Shown: piece after piece, positions 1,696 through 41,728 of the stretch
Position numbering within the stretch: position 1 is the first letter of the stretch
Layout: every line of letters begins with the position of its first letter
Assembly (NCBI GenBank): GCA_015075375.1
Contig: JABTUM010000002.1
Span: 341,393-405,392 of the forward strand
Direction: 5' to 3'
From: Planctomycetota bacterium
GTDB lineage: Bacteria > Planctomycetota > SZUA-567 > H5-PLA8
Length of the DNA: 64,000 bases
Translations under genes and position numbers: made by a program
The notes under the pieces: model-generated
The model's database searches: none
Told to the model about the DNA's origin: nothing
The model's input: only the letters and a program-made list of their open reading frames with translations

Positions 1696-2076
1696 ATGCC
1701 GCTTGACCTGCCCCCGAAGCGTATCCGCCGCCTTGCCGAAGAGGCTCTCGCCACGCTCCCGGAAGAGTTCCGCGCTGCCGTCGCCGAATGCGTTTTGAGC
1801 CTTCAACCCCGCGCCAGCGCCGCCCAGCGCCGCGAACTGGAACTTCAACCGGACGAGGAAGTCTACGGGCTCTATGAGGGACACGCGCTGACCGAGCGCC
1901 ACGTCGACGACCCGCCCGGCCTGCCGCCGCGCATCTCGATCTTTTACGAACCGCTGCTCGAAGACTGCGACACGGAGGAAGAACTCAAGCGCGAGATTCA
2001 GACCACGGTGCTCCACGAGATCGGGCACCATTTCGGCCTCGACGAGGACCGTCTGGACGAACTCGGGTACGCCTGA
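1696..2076 (+). CDS. small zincin-like metallopeptidase-family protein (HExxH motif: VLHEIGHHFGLDEDRLDELG)
   Basis: Likely start is the ATG at 1696 (MPLDLPPK) inside ORF 1606..2076. The C-terminal HEIGHHFG motif and a length of about 126 aa match the small putative zinc metallopeptidase family. Confidence 0.65.
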   Translation: MPLDLPPKRIRRLAEEALATLPEEFRAAVAECVLSLQPRASAAQRRELELQPDEEVYGLYEGHALTERHVDDPPGLPPRISIFYEPLLEDCDTEEELKREIQTTVLHEIGHHFGLDEDRLDELGYA

Positions 2077-2085
2077 AGTGACGAA

Positions 2086-2478
2086 TTACCCGTTTAAAAC
2101 CGCATAAAGGATGAAGATCCAGGGGCAGCACGCGATCACGCAGTGCGGCAGGATAATATAGAGACGGAACTTGGGTGGTGTATGCTCCCGGCCGGCGAGA
2201 AGGTGAAGCGCACGGGCCCAGGCAGCCAATACGCTTAGCATGAAGAAGGACATGAAGAGCGCGATGACCCAGTCTTCCTTCCCGGCGAAGATGAACGAAC
2301 GGTAAATCATGGCGCTGGCCATAGCCGTAAATAGGCCCGTTATCCCCACCGCAAGAAGCAACTCGGATAGGAAAAAGGAGGTCTGCTTTAGCAGCGCTCT
2401 GGCTGTCCGATAAAGCGCGAATACGAACGACGCCACCAGCACGGAGCCGACAAGTAGCAGCAGGACAAATGGAGTCAT
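2086..2478 (-). CDS. hypothetical small integral membrane protein (3-4 predicted TM helices)
   Basis: 130-aa ORF with several hydrophobic stretches (MTPFVLLLLVGSVLVASFVFALY...). No recognised motif. Confidence 0.5.
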   Translation of the reverse strand: MTPFVLLLLVGSVLVASFVFALYRTARALLKQTSFFLSELLLAVGITGLFTAMASAMIYRSFIFAGKEDWVIALFMSFFMLSVLAAWARALHLLAGREHTPPKFRLYIILPHCVIACCPWIFILYAVLNG

Positions 2479-2534
2479 GGTCGAATAATAACCACTGCGG
2501 GCCTTCTCTTTCGGCGCTTACGGCAGGTTATAGT

Positions 2535-4688
<2,154 letters not shown>

Positions 4689-4770
4689 TCAGGTATGGCG
4701 GGCGTCCCGTCCGCCAGTGAAGTAAGAAACAAAGGGGATTCGAAAACAGAAACGCCACGCCTGAATAATA

Positions 4771-4817
4771 CGCACGCCGTTCCCTTCTCCCTCTGGGAGA
4801 AGGGCAGGGATGAGGGA
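4771..4817. repeat. repeat copy A (core cgccgttcccttctccc-tct-gggagaagggcagggatgaggg, containing a 10-bp stem / 3-nt loop hairpin)
   Basis: Exact duplicate of 4854..4899, located 83 bp away. The same core recurs three times at 11262..11592. Confidence 0.85.
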
Positions 4818-4853
4818 GGTATACTCAGCACTCGTCCGCGGATTTACAGCCCC

Positions 4854-4899
4854 GCACGCCGTTCCCTTCTCCCTCTGGGAGAAGGGCAGGGATGAGGGA
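4854..4899. repeat. repeat copy B of the same hairpin-containing element
   Basis: Identical 46-nt sequence to 4771..4817. It is followed by the short degenerate repeats aatccaaaatccaaaatcgtaaatccaaaatc at 4929..4960. Confidence 0.85.
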
Positions 4900-4962
4900 A
4901 GCACGCCCCCGCATCCCCGCCGCGCCTCAATCCAAAATCCAAAATCGTAAATCCAAAATCTG

Positions 4963-6552
4963 CTAGTTCCGGCTCAACTCATCCGCGCTGCGAGCCAGTT
5001 CTCCATACGCCGCCGACAACGCGGCGAGCTTCTTGCCCTTCTCGCTCGCCTCCTTGTTCCCCACCCGGAAAACGCCGAAGTCGAACCCGCCGGCTTCCCG
5101 AGCTTCGCGCGCCTGAGCGTCGTAATGGTTCCGCGCCGCCGCCGACCATTCTCCCAGCTCTCGAGCGCTCGCGCGCACCGCCGCCGGTTGGCCCTTCAAT
5201 TCTGCGAAGCGCTTGGCCAGCAGCAGGTCGCGCGCCGAGCGCACCGAGGCGCCCAGGCGCTGGTCGAGCGCCTCCAGTTGCGGCAGCAGCTTCGCCGCGT
5301 ACGCATCGCGCGCATCGATCGCCAGCGCCTGTTGGTGCAACTCCAGCGCCTGCCCCCGCGCCGCGCCCACCAGCACCGCCCGCTCGCGCGTCGCCAGCAG
5401 ATCGGCCAGTCCGTCCTCAAGCTGCAGCAGCCCCTCGTGCTCGGGGTGCAGCACCGTCGCCGCGTCGGCGATCTTCGCCGCTTCGTCGAACTGGTCGCGC
5501 TTGATCAGGTCCAGGATTCGGGCTTCCTGGGCCGCGACCTGAGCTTCGCCCGGAGCGACGCCAGGCCGGCCTTGGCCTTGCCCCGAGCGCGATCTGTTCA
5601 TCCGCGACATCCGCGCGCCGTACACCTCCCGCAGCGGCGGATACGCCACGCCCGCGCGGTGATATTCTTCTTTCGCCGTCTTCCAGTCACGCCGTTCACG
5701 CGCCGCGTCGCCGCGCAGCACCGCCAGCCAGCCCGCTGCCGCGGAAGCCCGCGTCCGCGCTTCGGCGTCTTCCGGATCGTGATGCAGCGCCGCTTCGTAG
5801 TGCGCGTGAGCCGCTTCCCATTCGCCCTTCAAGAACGCCCGGTCCGCGAACTCGCGGTGCTGCCGGTACGCCTCGTCGCCGCGTGCTTCTTCCCACAGCG
5901 CCAGCAGCGGCTCAGGGTAATTTTCCGGCGGCCGCAACGCGTCGGCCGGCACCGGAGGATGCACAGGCCGCACGGCCGGCTGAGCCACGGGCGGCGCCAC
6001 CGGGCCTTGCGCCTGAGCTGCGCGCGCTTCGGCCTCGCGCCGCGCCGCTTCTTCGCGCGCCAGCCGCTCCGCTTCCTCCTTCGCCTTCCGTTCCGCTTCG
6101 GCCTTCGCGGCCCGCTCCGCTGTCTCGCGTGCCTGCTGCTCCTGGTACGCCCGCTCGTATCCCGCCCGGCTCTGCCAGTCCGCCCGCCCCGTCTTCGGAG
6201 GCAGATCGTTCATCAAATGCGCGTCGCGCGAAGGCGCATCCTTATCGGTCGCCGCCAAACTCAGCGTGTCGGCCGCCACCGTATAACGGAAATGCCGCCG
6301 CGCCTTCACCGCGTCGGGATACGTCAGAGCCAAATCCGTGCTCGTAGCGGCATAAAGTCCCTGAACCTTCTGGCCGCCCGGAGAGGTGATCGCATACTGC
6401 CGGTCCGCCGTCAGCGTAAGCTGCCAGAACTTCCCGCCTTCGACGAAGAGCCACGTATTGACCAGCTCGCCTTCGCCCGCGTGAAGCCCCAGCCCGGCCA
6501 AGCTCGCCAGAACCCATACCGCCATACGCATCGCATTGCTGGGCATGCTCAA
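4963..6552 (-). CDS. secreted coiled-coil / TPR-like protein of unknown function
   Basis: 529 aa with an N-terminal signal peptide (MRMAVWVLASLAGLGLHA). It has a long charged E/A/R-rich coiled-coil segment (AERAAKAEAERKAKEEAERLAREEAARREAEARAAQ) and TPR-like helical repeats in the C-terminal half. Confidence 0.6.
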   Translation of the reverse strand: MSMPSNAMRMAVWVLASLAGLGLHAGEGELVNTWLFVEGGKFWQLTLTADRQYAITSPGGQKVQGLYAATSTDLALTYPDAVKARRHFRYTVAADTLSLAATDKDAPSRDAHLMNDLPPKTGRADWQSRAGYERAYQEQQARETAERAAKAEAERKAKEEAERLAREEAARREAEARAAQAQGPVAPPVAQPAVRPVHPPVPADALRPPENYPEPLLALWEEARGDEAYRQHREFADRAFLKGEWEAAHAHYEAALHHDPEDAEARTRASAAAGWLAVLRGDAARERRDWKTAKEEYHRAGVAYPPLREVYGARMSRMNRSRSGQGQGRPGVAPGEAQVAAQEARILDLIKRDQFDEAAKIADAATVLHPEHEGLLQLEDGLADLLATRERAVLVGAARGQALELHQQALAIDARDAYAAKLLPQLEALDQRLGASVRSARDLLLAKRFAELKGQPAAVRASARELGEWSAAARNHYDAQAREAREAGGFDFGVFRVGNKEASEKGKKLAALSAAYGELARSADELSRN

Positions 6553-6774
6553 CCCTCCTTGATTAGCCGTGATTGCGGACGCGGCTCCCTTGTAGGGGCA
6601 AGGACGGCCTAAACCAACCGAAATTCAGGGATTTGGATTGGGCAACCTATACGCATGAATGGCCATGCGGAATTCAGTAACCCGCACCGCCAAGGACAAC
6701 CACCGGTAGAATACGGTCCTCATTTTTGTCGTTATACAGTGCGGCGCCCTTACCGGTAATCGTTCGCTCGCCGT

Positions 6775-8178
6775 TCAGAACTCCCCTTCTTCCTGGCCCT
6801 GCTCTTTCTTCGGCGGGCACCGCACGTCCTTCACGCCCACCAGCTCCCGCGCACCGCCGGGGCGCTGCCATTCCAGCTTCGCCACCGCGCCGCCGCCGCC
6901 CTGAAAAAATTCGTACTTCAGCGCGTGCATCCCCGGCTGCAGTTCTACCTGCACCTGCCGCTCTTCCGTCCCGTGCAGATTCCAGTCGTCCAGCACCAGC
7001 TTCTCGCCCAAGTACAGCCGCGAGCCGTCGTCCGTCGTCGAGTAGAACGTGTACGTCCCCGCCGCATCGACCTTCAGGAATCCCGTCCAGCGCGCGCTGA
7101 ATTCCTCCTGCCGCCCGTCCGGGAACGGAAAATTGTTCTCCATGTGGTTCACCGATTCGCAGAGCTTCTCGTGGAGCTGCTTCTCGAAATTCCGCCCCTC
7201 GAAGAACTGGCCCCACAGCCCCGGCTGATAAATCCCCACGTCGCCCAAATGCGCCTCAGCCCACGCCACGATATCGGGCAGCCCCGATGCGTACGCGCGT
7301 TCGACGTACGCCTTCAGCCGCTGCCCCGCCTCCGCGTCGCCGGCCATCCGCCCGAAGCGCTCGGCGTCCCCGCCCGCCGTCGTCGCCCAAGCCGTCGCCA
7401 GCACGCCCACCAAATCCCGGCGCTCGAACTTCGCATCGTCGCCTTTCGTCTGCTCGTACAGCTTGGGAATCTGATCGGCCGGGATCGCGCGCCCGAAACT
7501 CGCAAGCGCCGTCAGCAGCGCGCCGCGCAACTCTGGCGGAGGTTCGCCGTTCAAGCGCTGCAGCAGCGCCTCCACCGCCCGCGGATCGCGCCGCTTGCCC
7601 AGCAACTCCGCCGCCTGAGCCGCCAACCCGATGTCCGTATCCTTCAACGCCTGAGCCAGCAGAATGTGCGCGACTTCGCCCATCGAGAGCAACTGCACGC
7701 GAGCGTGCTTGCGAGCGTCGCCCGTCGCCTTCAACGACTGAATCGCCGCCAGCGCACGCCCCGCGCTCGCGCGGTAATCGCGAAGCTGCTCGCTCAAATC
7801 CCTGAGCTGATTCTGTTGTTCGGGTTCGTAGAACGTGCGCAGCATCTCCGAGCACAACCGGTGCGCGGGGCCGAACTCGCCCGACGCGATCTGCGCCTTC
7901 AGCTTCTCGATCAGTTCCGGATAGCTGCCCGTCACCGCCGGCGCCGGCGTCTCGACCTTCGTCACCGTCGGCCCCTGCACCACCGTCGCCGGCTCCGGCG
8001 CAGGCGACGCGGGCTCGATCGCCTTCATGGGCGCGAGCTCGGCCGATTTCACCGCCTCCGCCGCCGGCTGAGCAGGGGCCGCCGCCGCGTCCTTCGGCGC
8101 GCCCGATCCACACCCCAGCGGAGCCGCCAGCAGCGCCGCCAGCCCCAACCGGCCCCAAGCCCTGAGCGTACGCGGCAT
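6775..8178 (-). CDS. lipoprotein with HEAT-like repeats and a C-terminal PA14-like beta-sandwich domain
   Basis: Start is at MPRTLRAW, followed by a lipobox-like LGCGSG. HEAT-like repeats are present (DPRAVEALLQRLNGEPPPELRGALLTAL). The C-terminal motif FSARWTGFLKVDAAGTYTFYSTTDDGSRLYLG is characteristic of PA14/GLEYA-type domains. Confidence 0.7.
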   Translation of the reverse strand: MPRTLRAWGRLGLAALLAAPLGCGSGAPKDAAAAPAQPAAEAVKSAELAPMKAIEPASPAPEPATVVQGPTVTKVETPAPAVTGSYPELIEKLKAQIASGEFGPAHRLCSEMLRTFYEPEQQNQLRDLSEQLRDYRASAGRALAAIQSLKATGDARKHARVQLLSMGEVAHILLAQALKDTDIGLAAQAAELLGKRRDPRAVEALLQRLNGEPPPELRGALLTALASFGRAIPADQIPKLYEQTKGDDAKFERRDLVGVLATAWATTAGGDAERFGRMAGDAEAGQRLKAYVERAYASGLPDIVAWAEAHLGDVGIYQPGLWGQFFEGRNFEKQLHEKLCESVNHMENNFPFPDGRQEEFSARWTGFLKVDAAGTYTFYSTTDDGSRLYLGEKLVLDDWNLHGTEERQVQVELQPGMHALKYEFFQGGGGAVAKLEWQRPGGARELVGVKDVRCPPKKEQGQEEGEF

Positions 8179-8440
8179 CGTCGGCTCCTTATAAGGATGC
8201 AGAACGGCTACATCGGTACAACCCCGCCCGCGCACACCTGTTGAATAAAAATGCTATCGTTTTACCGGCGCCTAAAGCAAAGCGTATCCCAAGCGCCTTA
8301 ACCGCTGCGTGCGTTGAAGTTCACCAGTGCAATCGAGCCAGCCGCCTCAAATGAAAACGGAACCGCGGACGCTTCGCGCGCCGGGTTCCGCTTGCGACGG
8401 CTTCCTGTTCTGCCGAGCCTGCGTTCATCCCTTCAGTTTA

Positions 8441-9058
8441 TCATGGCTTCGCCGCTGCCGAGGCCGCTTTCACCACATCCTCCGGCGCCAGCCGAGCCTT
8501 GTAGTCCGGGTTCGCATGCGCGAACAAAATCTTCCCGTCGCGCCCCACCACGTACACCGCCGGCACCGGCAGCGTCCAGTCCTGCGCGTCCAGGTCGATC
8601 TTGTACCCGCGATACTTCTCGATCGTCGCCGCGTCCAGCTTGAACGCGAGCTTGAACGCCTTCGCCGCCGCGTTCTGCGGATCGCTCAGCAGCGTAAACG
8701 ACACGCCGTGCTTCTCGGCCGTCGGCGCGAGCTTCGCCACGTCGTCCGGCGTGATCGCGACCAGCTTCAAGCCCTGTTCGGCCAGTTGAGGTTCGACCTT
8801 CTGCAACGCCGCCAAATGCCGCGTGCAGAACGGGCACCAGCCCCCGCGGTAGAAGATCACCACCGCCGGCTTCTCCTTCAGCAGCGCCGCCAGTTCCACC
8901 GCCTCGCCCTTGGCATTCTTCAACGTCGCCGCCGGGACCGCATCGCCCACCGCCAAGCCCTTCGCGTCTTCGGGCTTCTCCGCGACGCCCTCCGCCGCCG
9001 CCAGCGCCGCGCTCATCCCCAGCAACCCGGCCAGCATCGCAAATCGAACTCGAATCAT
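8441..9058 (-). CDS. secreted thioredoxin-fold redoxin (AhpC/TSA-family thiol-disulfide oxidoreductase)
   Basis: 205 aa with a signal peptide and a thioredoxin-fold motif (VVIFYRGGWCPFCTRHLAAL). Confidence 0.8.
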   Translation of the reverse strand: MIRVRFAMLAGLLGMSAALAAAEGVAEKPEDAKGLAVGDAVPAATLKNAKGEAVELAALLKEKPAVVIFYRGGWCPFCTRHLAALQKVEPQLAEQGLKLVAITPDDVAKLAPTAEKHGVSFTLLSDPQNAAAKAFKLAFKLDAATIEKYRGYKIDLDAQDWTLPVPAVYVVGRDGKILFAHANPDYKARLAPEDVVKAASAAAKP

Positions 9059-9267
9059 TTCGAACGTCGCTCCTCATCAGGGCGTGCACGCCCCCGCCAT
9101 TCGCGCGCCGCGCGAAACCAAGCGAGAACCGTTTGAGCTACCGATGCCAGAGCGGGGGCCGCTTATTCCGAGCGTACCGATTTTCTCGGACCCAGTTCAC
9201 GAGCCGTTCGAGCTTTGCCGTTTGTTTGGTTTTTACCGCTTGAAGGGTTCCTTTAACCATCCGCGCT

Positions 9268-11238
9268 CTACTTCCCATTCACCAAATAGTAGACCTGCTG
9301 CGCCCCGCACTTCGGACACTTCAACCGGCTCCCCTTAAAGTTCGCCGGCACCTCGCGCGTGTAACCGCACGCGCAGGAGAACGCATCCGGAATCAGCGCC
9401 CGCCGCGCTTCGTCGCTCCCCGGATCGTCCGGAGGCTGCCCGCCCTTCGCCGCGGCCGGCGGCGGAGGCGGCACGCCGTCCGATCCGCGCCGCGCACCCG
9501 GTGCGGGCGGGGGAGGCACCGGCGGACGCGCGCTCGGATCCAGGTCCGATCCGCGCAGCACTTTCCCGCCTCGCGAATTATCGACCTCCAGTTCTTTGAA
9601 CATCTCCCAGCGCGCCGCGCCGCTTTGCCGCTCTTCGAATTTCACGCTGTCCAGCTTCCCATCCCCATCCGCATCGCGCACGCCGTAGCTCGCGCCGGCC
9701 GCCACCGGCTTCGGCGGCGGCGGAACCGGAACGCCGCCCGAGCCGACAGGTGCGGGAACCGGCCGTAGTTTTCCTCCTGCTCCAGGAAGAGTACTGGATG
9801 CGAGCGGCGCCGCTGCGCCCGCCGCCTGCGGCGCGGCCTGCGCTTGCTGCTTCGCGCGAGCGATCTGCTCCAGCGTCTCCGCCGCCACCGGCGTCTGAGC
9901 GCCGCATTTCGCGCAGACCACCAGCTTCGGCCGGTCCGGAAGCGCCAGCCGCTCGCCGCACGCGCACGACATCATCAGCGCACCGGCCATACCCAGTCCG
10001 CCCGGAGCGAACAGCGCCGCCAGCACCGCCTCGGGCGGGAGTTGCCCCTGCGCCACCGCGCCCGCCGTCAGCACCCGCGCCAGCGGCTCCAGACGCTGCT
10101 GCATCGCCTCCGGCGTCCGCGCCCCTCCGCCTTTTAAGTGCTCCAGACCGAACGGAGCTTGGCCCGGCTGCAACGCCGCCTCGGCCTGCCCCTTCGGAAC
10201 CGGACGCGTCCCGCGCTCCGACGAGGCCTGCTGCAAATCCTTCGCAGAATACAGCCCGCGCTTCCCATCCTTCGCCATCAAGCGGAACTGCCGCTCGTAA
10301 TCGTTCAGCGTCGCGCCCGTCCCCAGGCTGCGCAGAATTCCCACGCGCTCCTTCAACGGAGGATGCGTGCTGAACAGTTCCTTCGCGCGCTCCTCGTGAG
10401 CTTTGATCGGATTGACGATGAAGAGCGGCGCCGTCGCGCGGTTGGCGACCTCCAGTACCTCCTGGTCGGCCGAGATTTTCTCCAGCGCGCTCGCCAGGCC
10501 TTCCGGGTTGCGCGTGAACTCCACGGCGCTCGCGTCGGCCAGGTATTCGCGCCGCCGGCTGATGCACAGATACAGCATCCGGGCGATGATCGGCGCCAGG
10601 ATCGCCAGCAGCAGCGCCAGGACCAGCAGCACGAGCTGCGCGCCGCCGCCTCCGCCGCCCTTGCTCCCGCCAGAACGCTTGCCGCCGCCGAACCTGAACA
10701 GCCGCGCGTAGCGCAGGAAGAAATCGCACAACAGCGCGATCGTGCCCACCATCACCGCCGCGCGGATCAGATAGTTCGTGTCGCGGTTGCGGATGTGCGC
10801 CAGTTCGTGCGCCATCACGCCGGCCAGTTCGTCGCGCGTCAGCTTCTGCAGCAAGCCCGACGTGATCGCCACCGCCGCCGTCTGCGGCGTGCGCCCTACC
10901 GCGAAGGCGTTGGGCGCCGTGTCCTCGATCACGTAGATCCGCGGGCGCGGCAAGCCCGAGGCGATGCAGAGTTCCTCGACGACGTTCCAGAGCTGCGGAA
11001 ATTCCTTGTGCGAAACCTCGCGCGCCCCGGACATGCTCAGCACCGCCGAGTCCGCCGCGAAGTATGTGATGATCGTGAGGACCAGCCAAGTGCTCAGCGC
11101 CAGGAACGCGCCCGTCACCAAGCCCTGCTCGGGATCGGCCGCCGCGCCCAAGATCGCGCCGACCAGCACCGTGAACGCGCCGAGCCCCATCATCAAGAGG
11201 AGCGACTTGCGCTCGTTGGATCGGATCAGATCCCACAT
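9268..11238 (-). CDS. HtpX-like M48 zinc metalloprotease with a roughly 350-aa C-terminal extension carrying two zinc-ribbon modules
   Basis: The N-terminal 300 aa have 4 TM segments and the HEXXH motif (VMAHELAHIRNRD), a Gly-rich loop and the STHPPLKERV region typical of HtpX. The tail contains Pro-rich linkers, an EF-hand-like DADGDGKLD loop and duplicated CxCG...CxKCGAQ motifs (SCACGERLALPDRPKLVVCAKCGAQ and SCACGYTREVPANFKGSRLKCPKCGAQ). Confidence 0.8.
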   Translation of the reverse strand: MWDLIRSNERKSLLLMMGLGAFTVLVGAILGAAADPEQGLVTGAFLALSTWLVLTIITYFAADSAVLSMSGAREVSHKEFPQLWNVVEELCIASGLPRPRIYVIEDTAPNAFAVGRTPQTAAVAITSGLLQKLTRDELAGVMAHELAHIRNRDTNYLIRAAVMVGTIALLCDFFLRYARLFRFGGGKRSGGSKGGGGGGAQLVLLVLALLLAILAPIIARMLYLCISRRREYLADASAVEFTRNPEGLASALEKISADQEVLEVANRATAPLFIVNPIKAHEERAKELFSTHPPLKERVGILRSLGTGATLNDYERQFRLMAKDGKRGLYSAKDLQQASSERGTRPVPKGQAEAALQPGQAPFGLEHLKGGGARTPEAMQQRLEPLARVLTAGAVAQGQLPPEAVLAALFAPGGLGMAGALMMSCACGERLALPDRPKLVVCAKCGAQTPVAAETLEQIARAKQQAQAAPQAAGAAAPLASSTLPGAGGKLRPVPAPVGSGGVPVPPPPKPVAAGASYGVRDADGDGKLDSVKFEERQSGAARWEMFKELEVDNSRGGKVLRGSDLDPSARPPVPPPPAPGARRGSDGVPPPPPAAAKGGQPPDDPGSDEARRALIPDAFSCACGYTREVPANFKGSRLKCPKCGAQQVYYLVNGK

Positions 11239-11261
11239 GGCTGCGTTGCGTCCGTCTCCGG

Positions 11262-11592
11262 ATTCAAGTTCTCCCCCTGAGCAAGGGGGAGCCAGAGGGG
11301 GTGCCGTCGCCGTTCCCTTCTCCCACTGGGAGAAGGGCCAGGGATGAGGGCGGTCATGCCCTTCACCCGTCCCTAGCTCCTATTCTCCCCCTTAGCAAGG
11401 GGGAGTTAGAGGGGGTGCCGTCGCCGTTCCCTTCTCCCTCTGGGAGAAGGGCCAGGGATGAGGGCGGTCAAGCTCTTCACCCGGCCCTAGCTCCTATTCT
11501 CCCCCTTAACAAGGGGGAGTTAGAGGGGGTGCCGTCGCCGTTTCCCTCTCCCTCTGGGAGAAGGGCGGTCAAGCCCTTCACCCGCGCCCTAG
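11262..11592. repeat. tandem array of three units of about 114 bp, each with two hairpins (ctccccc-ttagcaa-gggggag and cccttctccc-tct-gggagaaggg); shares its core with the repeats at 4771-4899
   Basis: Units are at 11262-11376, 11377-11490 and 11491-11592. The last unit lacks a 12-bp ccagggatgagg segment. The units are directly adjacent with no unique spacers. The ORF 11301..11597 (PSPFPSP repeats) is a translation artefact of this array. Confidence 0.85.
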
Positions 11593-11936
11593 AATAACAA
11601 ACCCGCGCCCGAAGGTTTCGATAAAACCTCGCCACATCAACGACTTGCATGCGCATGTGCAGGTGGTGCACGATCGCGCAGGCTTTACCGTTGTGCTCGA
11701 GAGAACCTGAGTGGCCGAAGTTTGATGAGGTGAGGCGTCTTAGGGTTCCAATACGCACGACTGAGGTTGTGAAGAGTGGGAATCGGAGCCTGCGCTCAAG
11801 ATACGAATACACTCACGGCCGTTCGGGCCAAGCTAGATCTGAAGGGGGTTCGTGAGTCTACGGCGCAAGTCCCCGCAAGCAGATGCCGAAGAAGCGATTG
11901 GAGACAAAGCCTAAGGTCTGAGCACCTTTCCAGAGA

Positions 11937-13859
11937 TTATTCTACGGGCTCTGTTTCGATCCACTTCAAGGCCGGTTCCTTGCCCGTGGCGATCTTCCAG
12001 GAACGGTCCATCTGCGCGCCGGCCGGATACACATGCGACTCGGTCTTTTCCTGGCCGTCTTCCGTCCAGCAATAGGTGACTTTAGTTCGAGCGGTGTTGG
12101 GGGCTGCGTAAACCGCGGAGAATTGGCCCATCTGGTAGTACTTGCCCATGTTGTTGCTGATGCGAATCAGCACCTCGTTCAGTTGGTCGCCGGAGATATC
12201 CTTGGTGCCGAAGAAGAAGGTCTGCGACCAGGTATCCGGAGGGTTGTAGGGCTCCGGCGGATTGATGCGCCAATCGTCCTTCAAAAGGCTCCAATTCTTT
12301 CCATCCTTCGAGTATTCGGCCTTGAAGGCCAATTCAGGCTTGGGTGGGCACCCCGTGGGAGAACGAGTAGCCCAGCAGACGGTTTGGATTTTCTCTCCGC
12401 GCGGCGTCTTGAGTTTGACGGTGAACGAAGGCCCGCCCAGCGAACCTTCGACGATATGCCGGGACAGCGCTTCGGCTTGCGGGCCGACGGTTTCCACGGC
12501 CAAGCCCGAAGAATTAAACGTGATCTGCGTGCCGTCGGACTTCAGGTGAGGCATGACGTAGCCGCTGGCCATGCAACGGGTGGTGATCACGATCCCTTGG
12601 TCGGCCAGATTTTTAGGTGCGGTCATGAACTGCAGCCAGTAACGGTAGTGCCCCTTCACCAGGTCGGACAGATCCAGACCGTCTTTGAAATCCACCGGTT
12701 CGGAAAAGGTCTTCATGCCGTCGGTGGACACGCGGACTTGGCAGGCTGCTCGGCCTTGGAGCACCAGCCCCAGCGTAGCACCGGGGTCGGTGCAATTTTT
12801 GGTGGAAGGTTTGACGCCGATGACGAACGGCGACTGGTGCTGGAAAGTCACCGATTGGTCGTCCTCCGCGGCCACGGCGGCCTTGTAGGAACCATCCTGA
12901 AAGGAGGGCTTGTAGGTGAATACGGCATTTCCGAAGCGAGCGCGGCGGTTGGGGTCTCGCTCCAATTGGGGACGTGCCGTGGCATTGAAACTTCGGTCTG
13001 GGTCGGTCAGGTAAGTAATGTGGCGGTTCGGGCCATCCAGACCGTCCACGCAGATGCCCCAGAAAACCAGCGTACCTTGCTCCCCCTGGCCCAAGCCGGG
13101 ACGGGGAAACCGGCGCAACGTCTCGCCCGGGCGCAAGTGGACCATCGGAGGGGCTCCGGCGTATCCGGACAGGGGCGCATAGGCCAGCGTCTTCCGATAC
13201 CCTTCACCGTCGCCAGGATAAAGCTCGGGAAGCCAGCCGCGATTATCCTTGGCAGGCCGGTTGGTCAGGTACGCGGCGCGATCGCTGGCGGCCAGTTCCT
13301 CGATATTCATCAACATCTTCTGCTCCTTATCGAAGCAGACGGTGGTGATGTCGCTGTCCAGCAAGACCCACTTTCCGGTGCTGTAGGCGCCGCCCGTAAT
13401 AAAGGCTTCGAAGGACGTATGGCCTTGGACCATCATGCTGCGAGCGCGGGCATGGCCCAGAAGGTATTCCATCTCCGCGGTATATTGAGCGTGATTTTCC
13501 TGGCACATGCCGTGCCCGAAAGAAAACAAGCTGTTCCAATACTCCCGTTCGAATTCGGGCCCGCCCTTTTTGAGTACGTCCGGCAAAGGCAGCGATGTGC
13601 AGTGAAAATAGTGGGTATTCCGCCAGTACCAGCTCGCCAGCGCCTTGTCTTCTTCCTGGTCCGTCTTGCGGCCGGTGACTCGCGTATACAGTTCCGCCTG
13701 GCTCTTGAACAGCCGGTCGAAGGTCGAGCACGAAAGCTCGCCTTGCCAGTAGGGATGGTCGCTCATCAATTGTGGATCGCCCACGCTGCCCGCGGCCCAA
13801 ACGCCGCACGGCGCGCCGAGCAGCACGAAGATCAAGAGCGCCAGGGTCTTGGGTATCAT
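11937..13859 (-). CDS. large secreted hypothetical protein (about 640 aa), Cys/Trp/Tyr-rich, with lower GC than surrounding genes
   Basis: Signal peptide MIPKTLALLIFVLLGAPCGVWAAGS after the internal ATG at 13859. The opposite-strand ORF 12033..13931 is R/G/A-rich shadow. No family recognised. Confidence 0.6.
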   Translation of the reverse strand: MIPKTLALLIFVLLGAPCGVWAAGSVGDPQLMSDHPYWQGELSCSTFDRLFKSQAELYTRVTGRKTDQEEDKALASWYWRNTHYFHCTSLPLPDVLKKGGPEFEREYWNSLFSFGHGMCQENHAQYTAEMEYLLGHARARSMMVQGHTSFEAFITGGAYSTGKWVLLDSDITTVCFDKEQKMLMNIEELAASDRAAYLTNRPAKDNRGWLPELYPGDGEGYRKTLAYAPLSGYAGAPPMVHLRPGETLRRFPRPGLGQGEQGTLVFWGICVDGLDGPNRHITYLTDPDRSFNATARPQLERDPNRRARFGNAVFTYKPSFQDGSYKAAVAAEDDQSVTFQHQSPFVIGVKPSTKNCTDPGATLGLVLQGRAACQVRVSTDGMKTFSEPVDFKDGLDLSDLVKGHYRYWLQFMTAPKNLADQGIVITTRCMASGYVMPHLKSDGTQITFNSSGLAVETVGPQAEALSRHIVEGSLGGPSFTVKLKTPRGEKIQTVCWATRSPTGCPPKPELAFKAEYSKDGKNWSLLKDDWRINPPEPYNPPDTWSQTFFFGTKDISGDQLNEVLIRISNNMGKYYQMGQFSAVYAAPNTARTKVTYCWTEDGQEKTESHVYPAGAQMDRSWKIATGKEPALKWIETEPVE

Positions 13860-13970
13860 GTTCGGATCCTCATGGAAAAAACCGCTGCTCAAACGGCCTC
13901 GACGCTTTCCGGCACGAGGCGCTGGACATAGTACACCGCAATCGCGGCGGAAAAATGGCCGCGGCCTCGA

Positions 13971-40502: not shown

Positions 40503-40558
40503 GTGGGGCAGGTGAACAGTAAACAGTGAACAGTAAACGGTAACGGATGGGCTAGGGC

Positions 40559-41728
40559 ATGAATGCAAAGTTTCAGAATGGACTCAGGCGCGTCGGATGC
40601 GAGTCAGGTATTTGCGCGCTTCTTTGGCGGATCTGTGCGCTATTCGCTTGCGTGCTGTCGGTTGAGCTTGGCGCGGCGGAAGCTACGGAATTCCTTCGTG
40701 CCGTCGAGCCCCGGGCGTTCGAGTTTCCACGTGATTACGGCAGTCATCCGGAGTACCAGACCGAATGGTGGTACCTGACCGGTTCCTTGGAAGACGAGCG
40801 CGGAGCGGTCTTCGGCTTTCAAGCGACGTGGTTCCGCCGCGGCCTGAGCCGAACCGCGCCGCCGCGCACGAGCACGCTGGCGGCACGCGATGCGATTCTA
40901 TTCCACGGCGCGTTGACCGACGTGAACGGCAAGCGCTTTGCCCATGAGCACGCGACATCCCGCGCCGCCAGCACCTGGGCCGGGTCCAATACCGATGGCC
41001 TGAACGTCTGGCTATTCGAGCACGTTTTACGCAGCGAAGGGGACGGAACGTGGTCGCTGACCTTCACCGTGCAAGGCCGGCGTGTGGCCTTGAAGCTCCA
41101 ACCGCGCCGCCCGCCTCTGCTGCACGGTTCGACGCCGGGCTTGAGCATCAAAGGCTCCGAACCCGGTCAGGCGTCCTACTACGTATCGCACACGCGCATG
41201 GAAGCGAGCGGCACGCTCCAAGCCTCGCCCGGTGAAACGCCACGAGCGGTGCGCGGCACGGTTTGGTACGACCAGGAGTTCGGCAGCAATCAACTCTCCG
41301 CCGATCAGATCGGCTGGGACTGGTTCAGCGTGCCGCTCGACGAAGGCACAGACCTGATGCTCTACCGGCTGCGCCGCTCGGACGGCTCGGCGGACCCGGC
41401 CAGCAGCGGGACGTTGCGCTTCGCCGATGGCCGGCGCGTGCATCTATCCCGCGAGGCCGCGACGGTCGAGGTCCGTAAGCACTGGACCAGTCCGCACACC
41501 GGCGCGAAGTATCCCGCCGGTTGGACCTTAACGATTCCCCAGGAGCGGCTGGAGCTTTCCGTGGCGCCGCTGCTCGACGATCAGGAACTGCGCACCGAAG
41601 GTTCCACCAACGTGAATTATTGGGAAGGGCTGTGCGGTTTCGAGGGCCGCGTTCAGGACCAACCCGCCAAGGGCCGCGGCTACGTCGAACTAGTGGGCTA
41701 TGCTGGGGCCTTTAAGGGCCGCTTGTAG
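40559..41728 (+). CDS. AttH-like / CrtC-family (lipocalin-like, hydroxyneurosporene-synthase-fold) secreted protein
   Basis: After the signal peptide, FEFPRDYGSHPEYQTEWWYLTGSL is the hallmark N-terminal motif of the AttH/CrtC family. It follows the ABC ATPase and FtsX permease genes, as in the Agrobacterium attFGH arrangement. Confidence 0.75.
   Translation: MNAKFQNGLRRVGCESGICALLWRICALFACVLSVELGAAEATEFLRAVEPRAFEFPRDYGSHPEYQTEWWYLTGSLEDERGAVFGFQATWFRRGLSRTAPPRTSTLAARDAILFHGALTDVNGKRFAHEHATSRAASTWAGSNTDGLNVWLFEHVLRSEGDGTWSLTFTVQGRRVALKLQPRRPPLLHGSTPGLSIKGSEPGQASYYVSHTRMEASGTLQASPGETPRAVRGTVWYDQEFGSNQLSADQIGWDWFSVPLDEGTDLMLYRLRRSDGSADPASSGTLRFADGRRVHLSREAATVEVRKHWTSPHTGAKYPAGWTLTIPQERLELSVAPLLDDQELRTEGSTNVNYWEGLCGFEGRVQDQPAKGRGYVELVGYAGAFKGRL

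Follow-up and report, generated by a model that had tools for sequence, protein, structure and literature searches.

A stretch of 64,000 nucleotides (nt) from a Planctomycetota bacterium (GenBank assembly GCA_015075375.1, contig JABTUM010000002.1, positions 341,393 to 405,392; hereafter, the window) carries short hairpin-forming repeats at two intergenic loci, one upstream of ligA (locus 1) and one upstream of an M48/HtpX-like peptidase gene (locus 2). To which class of elements do these repeats belong, and what might they do? An original prediction, made from the sequence without database searches, had recognized a hairpin-containing repeat family and proposed either an element resembling repetitive extragenic palindromes (REPs) and miniature inverted-repeat transposable elements (MITEs) or a structured regulatory or transcribed repeat. 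Its description was right apart from small corrections but under-interpreted, for it overlooked a G-rich tail that mirrors one hairpin arm, and with it the triplex class. The repeats are probably class II purine-motif intrastrand triplex motifs of the BoxC/PIT/TMECO class, that is, structure-prone, unstable DNA repeats that were recently amplified here. The class is known; what is new is its 10-triad, composite, and tandemly amplified form.

Repeats with the layout of purine-motif triplexes

Each intact hairpin (a C-rich Y arm, a 3-nt loop, and a G-rich R arm) is followed by a 2- to 3-nt linker and a G-rich tail that mirrors the R arm. The main motif has GGGAGAAGGG as its arm and GGGATGAGGG as its tail, and the antiparallel reading of the two gives G·G, A·A, or T·A throughout. 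The other motif family (CTCCCCCTT / AAGGGGGAG / GAGGGGGT) has the arm (AA)GGGGGAG and the tail GAGGGGG(T). The triads are limited to G·G-C, A·A-T, and T·A-T, which is the set of the purine-motif (reverse-Hoogsteen) triple helix. Mirror symmetry makes sense in a triplex, whereas neither Watson-Crick pairs nor proteins that recognize duplex repeats would call for it; it thus counts in favor of a triplex. The T·A-T triad is allowed on the G strand, whereas the complementary A breaks a pyrimidine motif on the C strand; the constraint thus points to the G-rich DNA strand rather than to the C strand or RNA.

Intrastrand triplex (ITxF) motifs were described by Holder et al. (2015) and are defined by a Y arm, an R arm, and a reverse-Hoogsteen arm, with stems of 6 to 15 nt, loops of 1 to 6 nt, and no more than one mismatched triad (PMC4666352). 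A triplex scanner following the published rules (stems of at least 8, at most one mismatched triad, both classes, both strands) returned seven motifs in the 64 kb, all of class II and on the + strand, two at locus 1 and five at locus 2. Their stems are 9 to 11 nt long, with a first loop of 3 nt and a second loop of 1 to 3 nt. By chance, 0.025 motifs per window are expected, with a maximum of 1 (40 dinucleotide-preserving shuffles). The block order, the antiparallel third block, and the over-representation compared to shuffles are those of class II ITxF sequences. The core hairpin CCCTTCTCCC-NNN-GGGAGAAGGG has five occurrences in the 64 kb, all of them at the two loci; 100 shuffles gave none.

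In the minimum-energy fold of the single-stranded DNA, which considers Watson-Crick pairs only, the Y and R arms pair and the tail is unpaired. Folding had been suggested as a check of the prediction; both strands fold well below shuffled controls, with z of −4.8 to −5.0 for the array at locus 2 and −2.9 to −3.3 for locus 1.

Two other arrangements were considered and rejected. A pyrimidine-motif triplex on the C strand or in RNA turns the dominant tail T into a mismatching A, and a class I arrangement with the downstream C block would require three mismatches.

Organization of the two loci

Locus 1 consists of an exact 47-nt repeat at 4771-4817 and 4853-4899 (82 nt from start to start, with a gap of 35 nt; none expected by chance). 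The repeat predicted upstream of ligA is therefore real, but its length is 47 rather than 46 nt and its spacing 82 rather than 83 nt. The parts of locus 1 are as follows:

4771-4817, + strand: 47-nt copy A (exact repeat), an 11-nt 5′ flank CGCACGCCGTT followed by the candidate triplex motif at 4782-4816
4782-4791, + strand: Y arm of copy A, CCCTTCTCCC
4792-4794, + strand: loop of copy A
4795-4804, + strand: R arm of copy A, GGGAGAAGGG, followed by the linker CA
4807-4816, + strand: mirror tail of copy A, GGGATGAGGG
4853-4899, + strand: 47-nt copy B, 100% identical to copy A, with the candidate triplex motif at 4864-4898
4908-4921, + strand: C-rich block CCCGCATCCCCGCC, 86% complementary to the tail of copy B and a possible alternative partner for it

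The motif of copy A has 10 triads and no mismatches in the triplex scan.

At locus 2, Tandem Repeats Finder reported a period of 114 at 11269-11566 (2.6 copies, 94% matches), and a separate repeat finder placed three units at 11269, 11383, and 11497, in agreement with the predicted recurrence of the core in three tandem units of about 114 base pairs (bp). The parts of locus 2 are as follows:

11269-11610, + strand: tandem array of a 114-nt composite unit, with unit starts at 11269, 11383, and 11497 (repeat finder); unit 3 diverges after ~11597
11271-11303, + strand: first-type motif of unit 1, CTCCCCCTG-AGC-AAGGGGGAG-CCA-GAGGGGGTG, 9 triads with 1 mismatch
11385-11417, + strand: first-type motif of unit 2, CTCCCCCTT-AGC-AAGGGGGAG-TTA-GAGGGGGTG
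11499-11531, + strand: first-type motif of unit 3 (triplex scan)
11315-11350, + strand: second-type 10-triad motif of unit 1, CCCTTCTCCC-ACT-GGGAGAAGGG-CCA-GGGATGAGGG
11429-11464, + strand: second-type 10-triad motif of unit 2 (hairpin search, triplex scan, TMECO alignment)
11543-11565, + strand: decayed second-type hairpin of unit 3, with 2 arm mismatches and the mirror tail lost through a 13-nt deletion
11358-11368, + strand: extra pyrimidine block GCCCTTCACCC, 91% complementary to the R arm, recurring at 11472-11482 (one change) and 11573-11583

The order within a unit is the first-type motif, an 11-nt spacer CCGTCGCCGTT, the second-type motif, CGGTCA(A/T)G, GCCCTTCACCC, and a spacer of ~14 nt; the spacer CCGTCGCCGTT resembles the flank CGCACGCCGTT that precedes the copies of locus 1. 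The 114-nt unit thus combines two motif families. The additional hairpin that had been noted in each unit is present in all three, but it really is a 9-bp stem with a 3-nt loop in units 2 and 3. The deletion noted in unit 3 exists, too; the alignment of units makes it 13 nt rather than 12, with CCAGGGATGAGGG lost between two AGGGC microhomologies, and the Y arm of the affected hairpin is mutated as well (2 mismatches). In the single-stranded fold of unit 3, the R arm pairs with the downstream C block instead. The units are contiguous head-to-tail 114-mers without unique spacers, so the array is not a CRISPR, as had been stated.

A 98-amino acid (aa) open reading frame (ORF) at 11301-11597 on the + strand was rejected as protein coding. 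It lies wholly inside the array, its period is broken by the 13-nt deletion, and it is almost certainly spurious, a typical product of G/C-rich repeats.

A sister variant of TMECO

TMECO, BoxC, and the PIT elements of Hoyne and Maher are the same elements (PMC4666352). The TMECO pattern is CCCTCNCCC-N3-6-GGGNGAGGG-N3-GGGNGAGGG, with 3610 copies across 262 proteobacterial genomes; the copies are always intergenic, with no bias in orientation or gene class, and are reported as not associated with phages or plasmids (PMC4666352). TMECO loci are also more variable than control intergenic sites (PMC4666352). For the 9-triad Escherichia coli motif, the isolated strand formed a stable triplex by circular dichroism (CD) and nuclear magnetic resonance (NMR), and the 18 imino signals were read by the authors as a triplex and not as a G-quadruplex (PMC4666352). 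Of 5426 complete E. coli genomes, 5409 contain the TMECO_2 35-mer (median, 17 places per genome), and it coincided with no annotated feature.

When aligned with TMECO 1, 2, and 17, the window motif has one extra base per block (bracketed in CCCT[T]CTCCC, GGGAG[A]AGGG, and GGG[A]TGAGGG). Together, the extra bases lengthen all three strands by one in-register T-A·A triad, and such a coordinated insertion is comparative evidence that the triple register matters. It also takes the motif outside the strict TMECO pattern, as does the 2-nt linker at locus 1. Judged by its sequence, the 10-triad motif is a sister variant of TMECO and not TMECO itself.

The likeness to TMECO/BoxC/PIT extends to the order of blocks (a C-rich arm, a short loop, a G-rich arm, a 2- to 3-nt linker, and a G-rich mirror tail with a T·A-T triad) and to the behavior of the copies, which are intergenic, multiple, unannotated, and locally unstable, with conserved stems and variable loops. 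The differences are equally clear. The stems have 10 triads in the window versus 9 in TMECO; the window copies are direct or tandem, whereas the E. coli copies are inverted A+B pairs; the window motif is joined with a second motif family in a 114-nt tandem unit; and the host is an uncultured Planctomycetota bacterium, with cores occurring also in viral contigs. The affiliation of the host is supported by named homologues and by the cluster mates GMV81546/7 and MBE7464674.1.

H-DNA is an intramolecular triplex formed at homopurine-homopyrimidine mirror repeats in supercoiled duplex, and it needs no third, complementary Y arm. The R arm, linker, and tail of the window motif make up a 22- to 23-nt purine-rich mirror repeat that would form the same reverse-Hoogsteen triads. 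Unlike in H-DNA, the Y arm is conserved in the window motifs, which points to folding of one isolated strand.

The mirror rule in other genomes

We searched public collections with hairpins only, leaving the tail free to vary, so that the tail was not part of the query. The 10-bp hairpin was found in 11 viral contigs and at least 120 genome contigs. We surveyed 149 hairpins CCCTTCTCCC-N3-7-GGGAGAAGGG from viral and GTDB genome contigs (for the latter, a lower bound). A mirror-compatible tail within 1 to 6 nt, on exactly one side, accompanied 102/149 hairpins, while a tail in direct-repeat order accompanied none (0/149). The tails were GGGATGAGGG (95), GGGAAGAGGG (5), and GGGTTGAGGG (3). The second hairpin, CTCCCCCTT-NNN-AAGGGGGAG, whose R arm is strongly asymmetric, behaved likewise in viral contigs: the mirror tail GAGGGGG was present in 18/22 cases and the direct order in 0/22.

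The matches listed come from Alpha-, Beta-, and Gammaproteobacteria, Cyanobacteriota, Chloroflexota, Bacteroidota, Ignavibacteria, Acidobacteriota, Armatimonadota, Myxococcota, Planctomycetota, Verrucomicrobiota, and Vulcanimicrobiota, and overall the core has hundreds of copies in >10 phyla. A repeat family, as had been predicted, thus exists when many genomes are taken together. Loops and flanks differ wholly between genomes. A crude gene caller, which found again ~90% of the genes called in the window's first 15 kb, allowed us to classify 58 loci in other genomes: 23 are antisense and 17 sense between co-directional genes, 13 are convergent, and 5 are divergent. The lack of a strong orientation bias fits an element that acts at the DNA level or is neutral.

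Both motif families occur in IMG/VR contigs classed as viral, be it in phage DNA or in host flanks; a blastn comparison of the array with phage genomes gave no match. Motif-bearing tandem arrays exist elsewhere: in a Roseiflexus sp. metagenome-assembled genome (MAG), an array of 108 nt × 2.5 lies beside one of 110 nt × 3 (contig positions 5135-5692), and a Chloroflexota MAG has one of 53 nt × ~4 (contig positions 380-600). In JGI metagenomes, neither the CGCCGTT + hairpin form nor the two-motif composite had a match (0 matches each). The composite unit thus appears to be lineage-restricted, at least by exact pattern.

Several of these copies have surroundings of their own. In four contigs of Candidatus Accumulibacter, the 10-bp hairpin lies within a ~95-nt unit, with the perfect-mirror tail GGGAAGAGGG in some copies. 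This unit is bounded by 9-nt inverted repeats, GTGAAAGTC...GACTTTCAC, which give it the look of a MITE; 14/16 positions of its right flank CGGTCATGACTTTCAC agree with window 11351-11366 (CGGTCATGCCCTTCAC). In a Pedosphaera sp. MAG (contig positions 6040-6090), the hairpin of one copy is preceded by a 5′ tail, CCCTCATCCC, and followed by a 3′ tail, GGGGTTGAGGG, so either strand could form the motif. Many cyanobacterial matches pair the 10-bp hairpin motif with a second hairpin, CCCTCTCCC...GGGAGAGGG. Elhai and colleagues are said to have described in 2008 small dispersed repeats of cyanobacteria in which very short repeats are nested in larger ones; for the present motifs, they offer no more than a lead.

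Copy number in a related lineage

Three independent assemblies exist of a related lineage (GCA_045863855.1, SRR24144931, and DRR491768), which shares with the window 95.7% nucleotide identity in ligA and 92.6 to 93.0% in the M48 gene, the gene of the 640-aa product, and a PA14 gene. Upstream of the M48 gene, the relative has a 555-nt intergenic region with one unit, and the window 698 nt with three. The single unit of the relative has an intact first-type motif and a second-type motif cut down to 8 triads (one mismatch), and its right junction corresponds to that of window unit 3. Upstream of ligA, the relative has one decayed copy (arm AGGAAAAGGG, tail GGGATGCGGG), compared to two identical intact copies in the window. 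The left flank of the decayed copy matches that of copy A and its right flank that of copy B, and the C-rich block that follows copy B is present there as well. Both loci have therefore changed copy number within roughly species-level divergence, a comparison that covers two loci and no control set.

A more distant relative, GCA_027493525.1 (66% identity in M48, 81% in LigA), has no motifs near either gene and no synteny. In GCA_045863855.1 (8001-9973), the M48 gene is split into two called ORFs (132 and 516 aa), which indicates a frameshift or an assembly error; another sample of the related lineage has an intact 657-aa M48 gene.

Genomic setting and assembly support

The genes next to the two loci are as follows:

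2535-4598, minus strand: ligA (NAD-dependent DNA ligase), context gene of locus 1
4963-6552, minus strand: ORF of 529 aa, whose stop borders locus 1
9268-11238, minus strand: M48/HtpX-like peptidase gene, context gene of locus 2
11937-13892, minus strand: ORF of 640/651 aa, bordering locus 2

As had been predicted, each locus occupies an intergenic region upstream of a minus-strand gene. Locus 1 is bounded by the stop of the 529-aa ORF and the start of ligA, with the 47-nt copies 173 to 301 nt upstream of that start. Locus 2 lies between the 640/651-aa ORF and the M48 peptidase gene, with the array ~30 nt upstream of the M48 ATG and therefore very probably transcribed. The flanking genes are co-directional at both loci. 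The GC skew of the window tracks gene strand, so that no replication direction can be derived from it. No triplex motifs beyond the two loci were found in ~81 kb of the source contig (the window plus 9.7 kb to its left and 7.5 kb to its right).

The 523-kb ENA contig ERZ27309503 k141_85999 contains the window and shows the three-unit array. Over window 1845-9814, which takes in both 47-nt copies, the independent assembly ERZ27309505 shows no difference. Logan contigs stop at window positions 4804, 4870, and 11323, all inside hairpins, since the repeats break de Bruijn assemblers. An assembly artefact, which had been named as a finding that would undercut the prediction, is unlikely given the identity of locus 1 in the independent assembly and the differences between array units; the copy number of the array rests on short-read assembly.

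Two further repeats lie in or near this region. The 17-nt motif GAACAGTAAACGGTAAC occurs exactly at 4657-4673 and 40528-40544, both intergenic (chance expectation, 0.03). One copy, which the related lineage has conserved, precedes the ligA start by ~59 nt; the other precedes an ATG at 40559 by 15 nt and is adjoined by a copy with three mismatches at 40514-40530. A regulatory or leader function is possible for this motif. A 7-nt tandem repeat, AATCCAA × 4.6, at 4929-4960 lies directly downstream of the stop of ORF 4963-6552, and its counterpart in the related lineage is not alignable.

Searches for regulatory, RNA, and mobile-element signals

At the gathering threshold, the Rfam 15 covariance models detected a single tRNA in the window, and there was nothing relevant at 4550-12100 at E up to 10. 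In both intergenic regions, a sigma-70 promoter scan yielded one weak promoter-like site (+ strand, 4740-4769), and an intrinsic terminator scan yielded nothing beyond chance. The suggestion of a structured regulatory or transcribed repeat thus gained no Rfam match and no promoter or terminator signal. The suggestion of a REP/MITE-like element survives as a loose analogy only: around the 47-nt and 114-nt units, neither terminal inverted repeats nor target-site duplications are present, the only inverted repeats being internal hairpins and C blocks, and the flanks of the copies are unrelated. No transposase or RAYT was identified with the repeats, the ORFs of the window not having been systematically screened.

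Discussion

We propose that the repeats are structure-prone DNA whose G-rich (+) strand, when single-stranded, would form a hairpin from its two arms. The tail would enter the major groove of this hairpin in antiparallel orientation, bound by reverse-Hoogsteen G·G-C, A·A-T, and T·A-T triads, and the folded strand would hinder polymerases when DNA is unwound. PIT elements are known to block DNA polymerase in vitro, according to the account of the work of Hoyne and Maher summarized in PMC4666352. Slippage, duplication, deletion, and possibly gene conversion could then concentrate at such loci, which would account for the changes from one to two and from one to three copies, the identity of the 47-nt copies, and the microhomology deletion of one tail. 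In vivo triplex formation may have caused the copy changes seen here. As for function, we hold with moderate confidence that the repeats act as structure-prone sequences perturbing replication or repair and not as dedicated regulatory signals.

Several points weigh against this explanation. The triplex was measured for the E. coli relative and not for these sequences, whose triplex folding is predicted from their layout. The TMECO triplex was undetected in duplex DNA and by in vivo dimethyl sulfate (DMS) footprinting (PMC4666352), and, as far as the summary of that work in PMC4666352 goes, PIT elements had no effect in in vivo replication, promoter, terminator, and conjugation assays. In addition, the 10-triad motif GGGAGAAGGG-C(C)A-GGGATGAGGG has the canonical sequence of a G-quadruplex, G3N4G3N2-3G3N4G3. 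Part of the conservation of the tail could stem from common descent rather than from selection on triads. The copy-number comparison relies on metagenome assemblies and two loci only. Last, an RNA-level effect on the M48 leader is possible since the array must lie in or beside that leader.

One may go further and suppose that the three-strand register is under selection across >10 phyla and phage-like contigs, and that triplexes form in vivo with a conserved role. The coordinated one-triad insertion compared to TMECO, the restriction of variation to A/T at A triads, and the absence of direct-order tails all lead in this direction, but we consider the proposal rather unlikely. If true, the motifs could have a role as replication or recombination punctuation, or could be an active part of a copy mechanism now amplifying intact copies in this Planctomycetota lineage.

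Four G3 tracts, contributed by the R arm and the tail, might instead fold in K+ and create a regulatory switch between G-quadruplex, hairpin, and duplex. The 10-triad motif fits G3N1-7G3N1-7G3N1-7G3, with its four G3 tracts following a complementary C-rich arm. This is the arrangement of HPG1/HPG2, the G-quadruplex-hairpin-duplex switch of Kaplan et al. (2016), which uses E. coli sequences of TMECO types A and B and shows an ion-dependent change in CD (PMC5100583). That work gives another structural reading to the E. coli motif, but a G-quadruplex does not predict the mirror rule. The first-type motif (GGGGGAG-TTA-GAGGGGG) lacks four G tracts, having two G runs, and yet follows that rule. The conserved Y arm and the restriction of tail bases to triad-compatible A/T and G are left unexplained, and the 18 imino signals of TMECO were read as a triplex (PMC4666352). 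We therefore regard the switch as unlikely.

No more probable is an RNA-level element, in which repeats located in the ligA and M48 leaders or between cistrons would form hairpins that modulate mRNA stability, processing, or translation in the manner of REPs. Transcription through the repeats is likely, with the M48 ATG ~30 nt away and co-directional flanking genes; folding is below shuffled controls on both strands; and one unit is kept at the same place in the relative. However, the repeats have no Rfam match and no promoter- or terminator-like sites, their orientation elsewhere is roughly even (23 versus 17), and their number is not the same in close relatives. An RNA hairpin has no use for the conserved mirror tail, RNA does not form purine-motif triplexes according to work cited in PMC4666352, and that paper's summary gives PIT elements neither terminator nor promoter activity.

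A MITE or a REP/REPIN-like element moved by a transposase or RAYT encoded elsewhere is more doubtful still. REPs are simple imperfect palindromes that are tied to RAYT transposases, usually occur as inverted pairs, and have no mirror tail. Like REPs, BIMEs, and REPINs, the repeats described here are short, GC-rich, palindromic, intergenic, often clustered, and disruptive to short-read assembly; unlike REPINs, the window copies are direct or tandem and not inverted doublets, and we know of no RAYT link for these motifs. Mobilization would agree with the two 100% identical 47-nt copies separated by unrelated sequence, with identical cores in unrelated flanks in many genomes and viral contigs, and with the terminal inverted repeats of the ~95-nt Accumulibacter unit. 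Terminal inverted repeats are missing from the 47-nt and 114-nt units, as are target-site duplications. The flanks of copies A and B match those of the single copy in the relative, so a local duplication fits better than an insertion, and the head-to-tail array at locus 2 is typical of slippage or unequal exchange. No mobilizing enzyme has been reported for BoxC/TMECO (PMC4666352).

That the repeats are an assembly artefact or a trivial local duplication with no family behind it is hardly credible: just two loci 6.4 kb apart carry them in ~81 kb and short-read assemblers break at them, but locus 1 recurs identically in an independent assembly, the three independent assemblies of the related lineage have homologous single units at both loci, the cores recur across phyla, and point changes and a deletion set the array units apart, contrary to what a collapsed or duplicated graph path would give.

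Few short repeats in bacteria are as widespread as intrastrand triplex motifs, which genome annotation nevertheless passes over. The loci considered here demonstrate that two motif families can form a composite unit that amplifies in tandem. A pair of lineages ~93 to 96% identical, with one versus two copies at one locus and one versus three at the other, is a natural before-and-after pair for the instability and propagation of such repeats. Recognition of the motifs also explains contig breaks and spurious ORFs in GC-rich metagenome assemblies.

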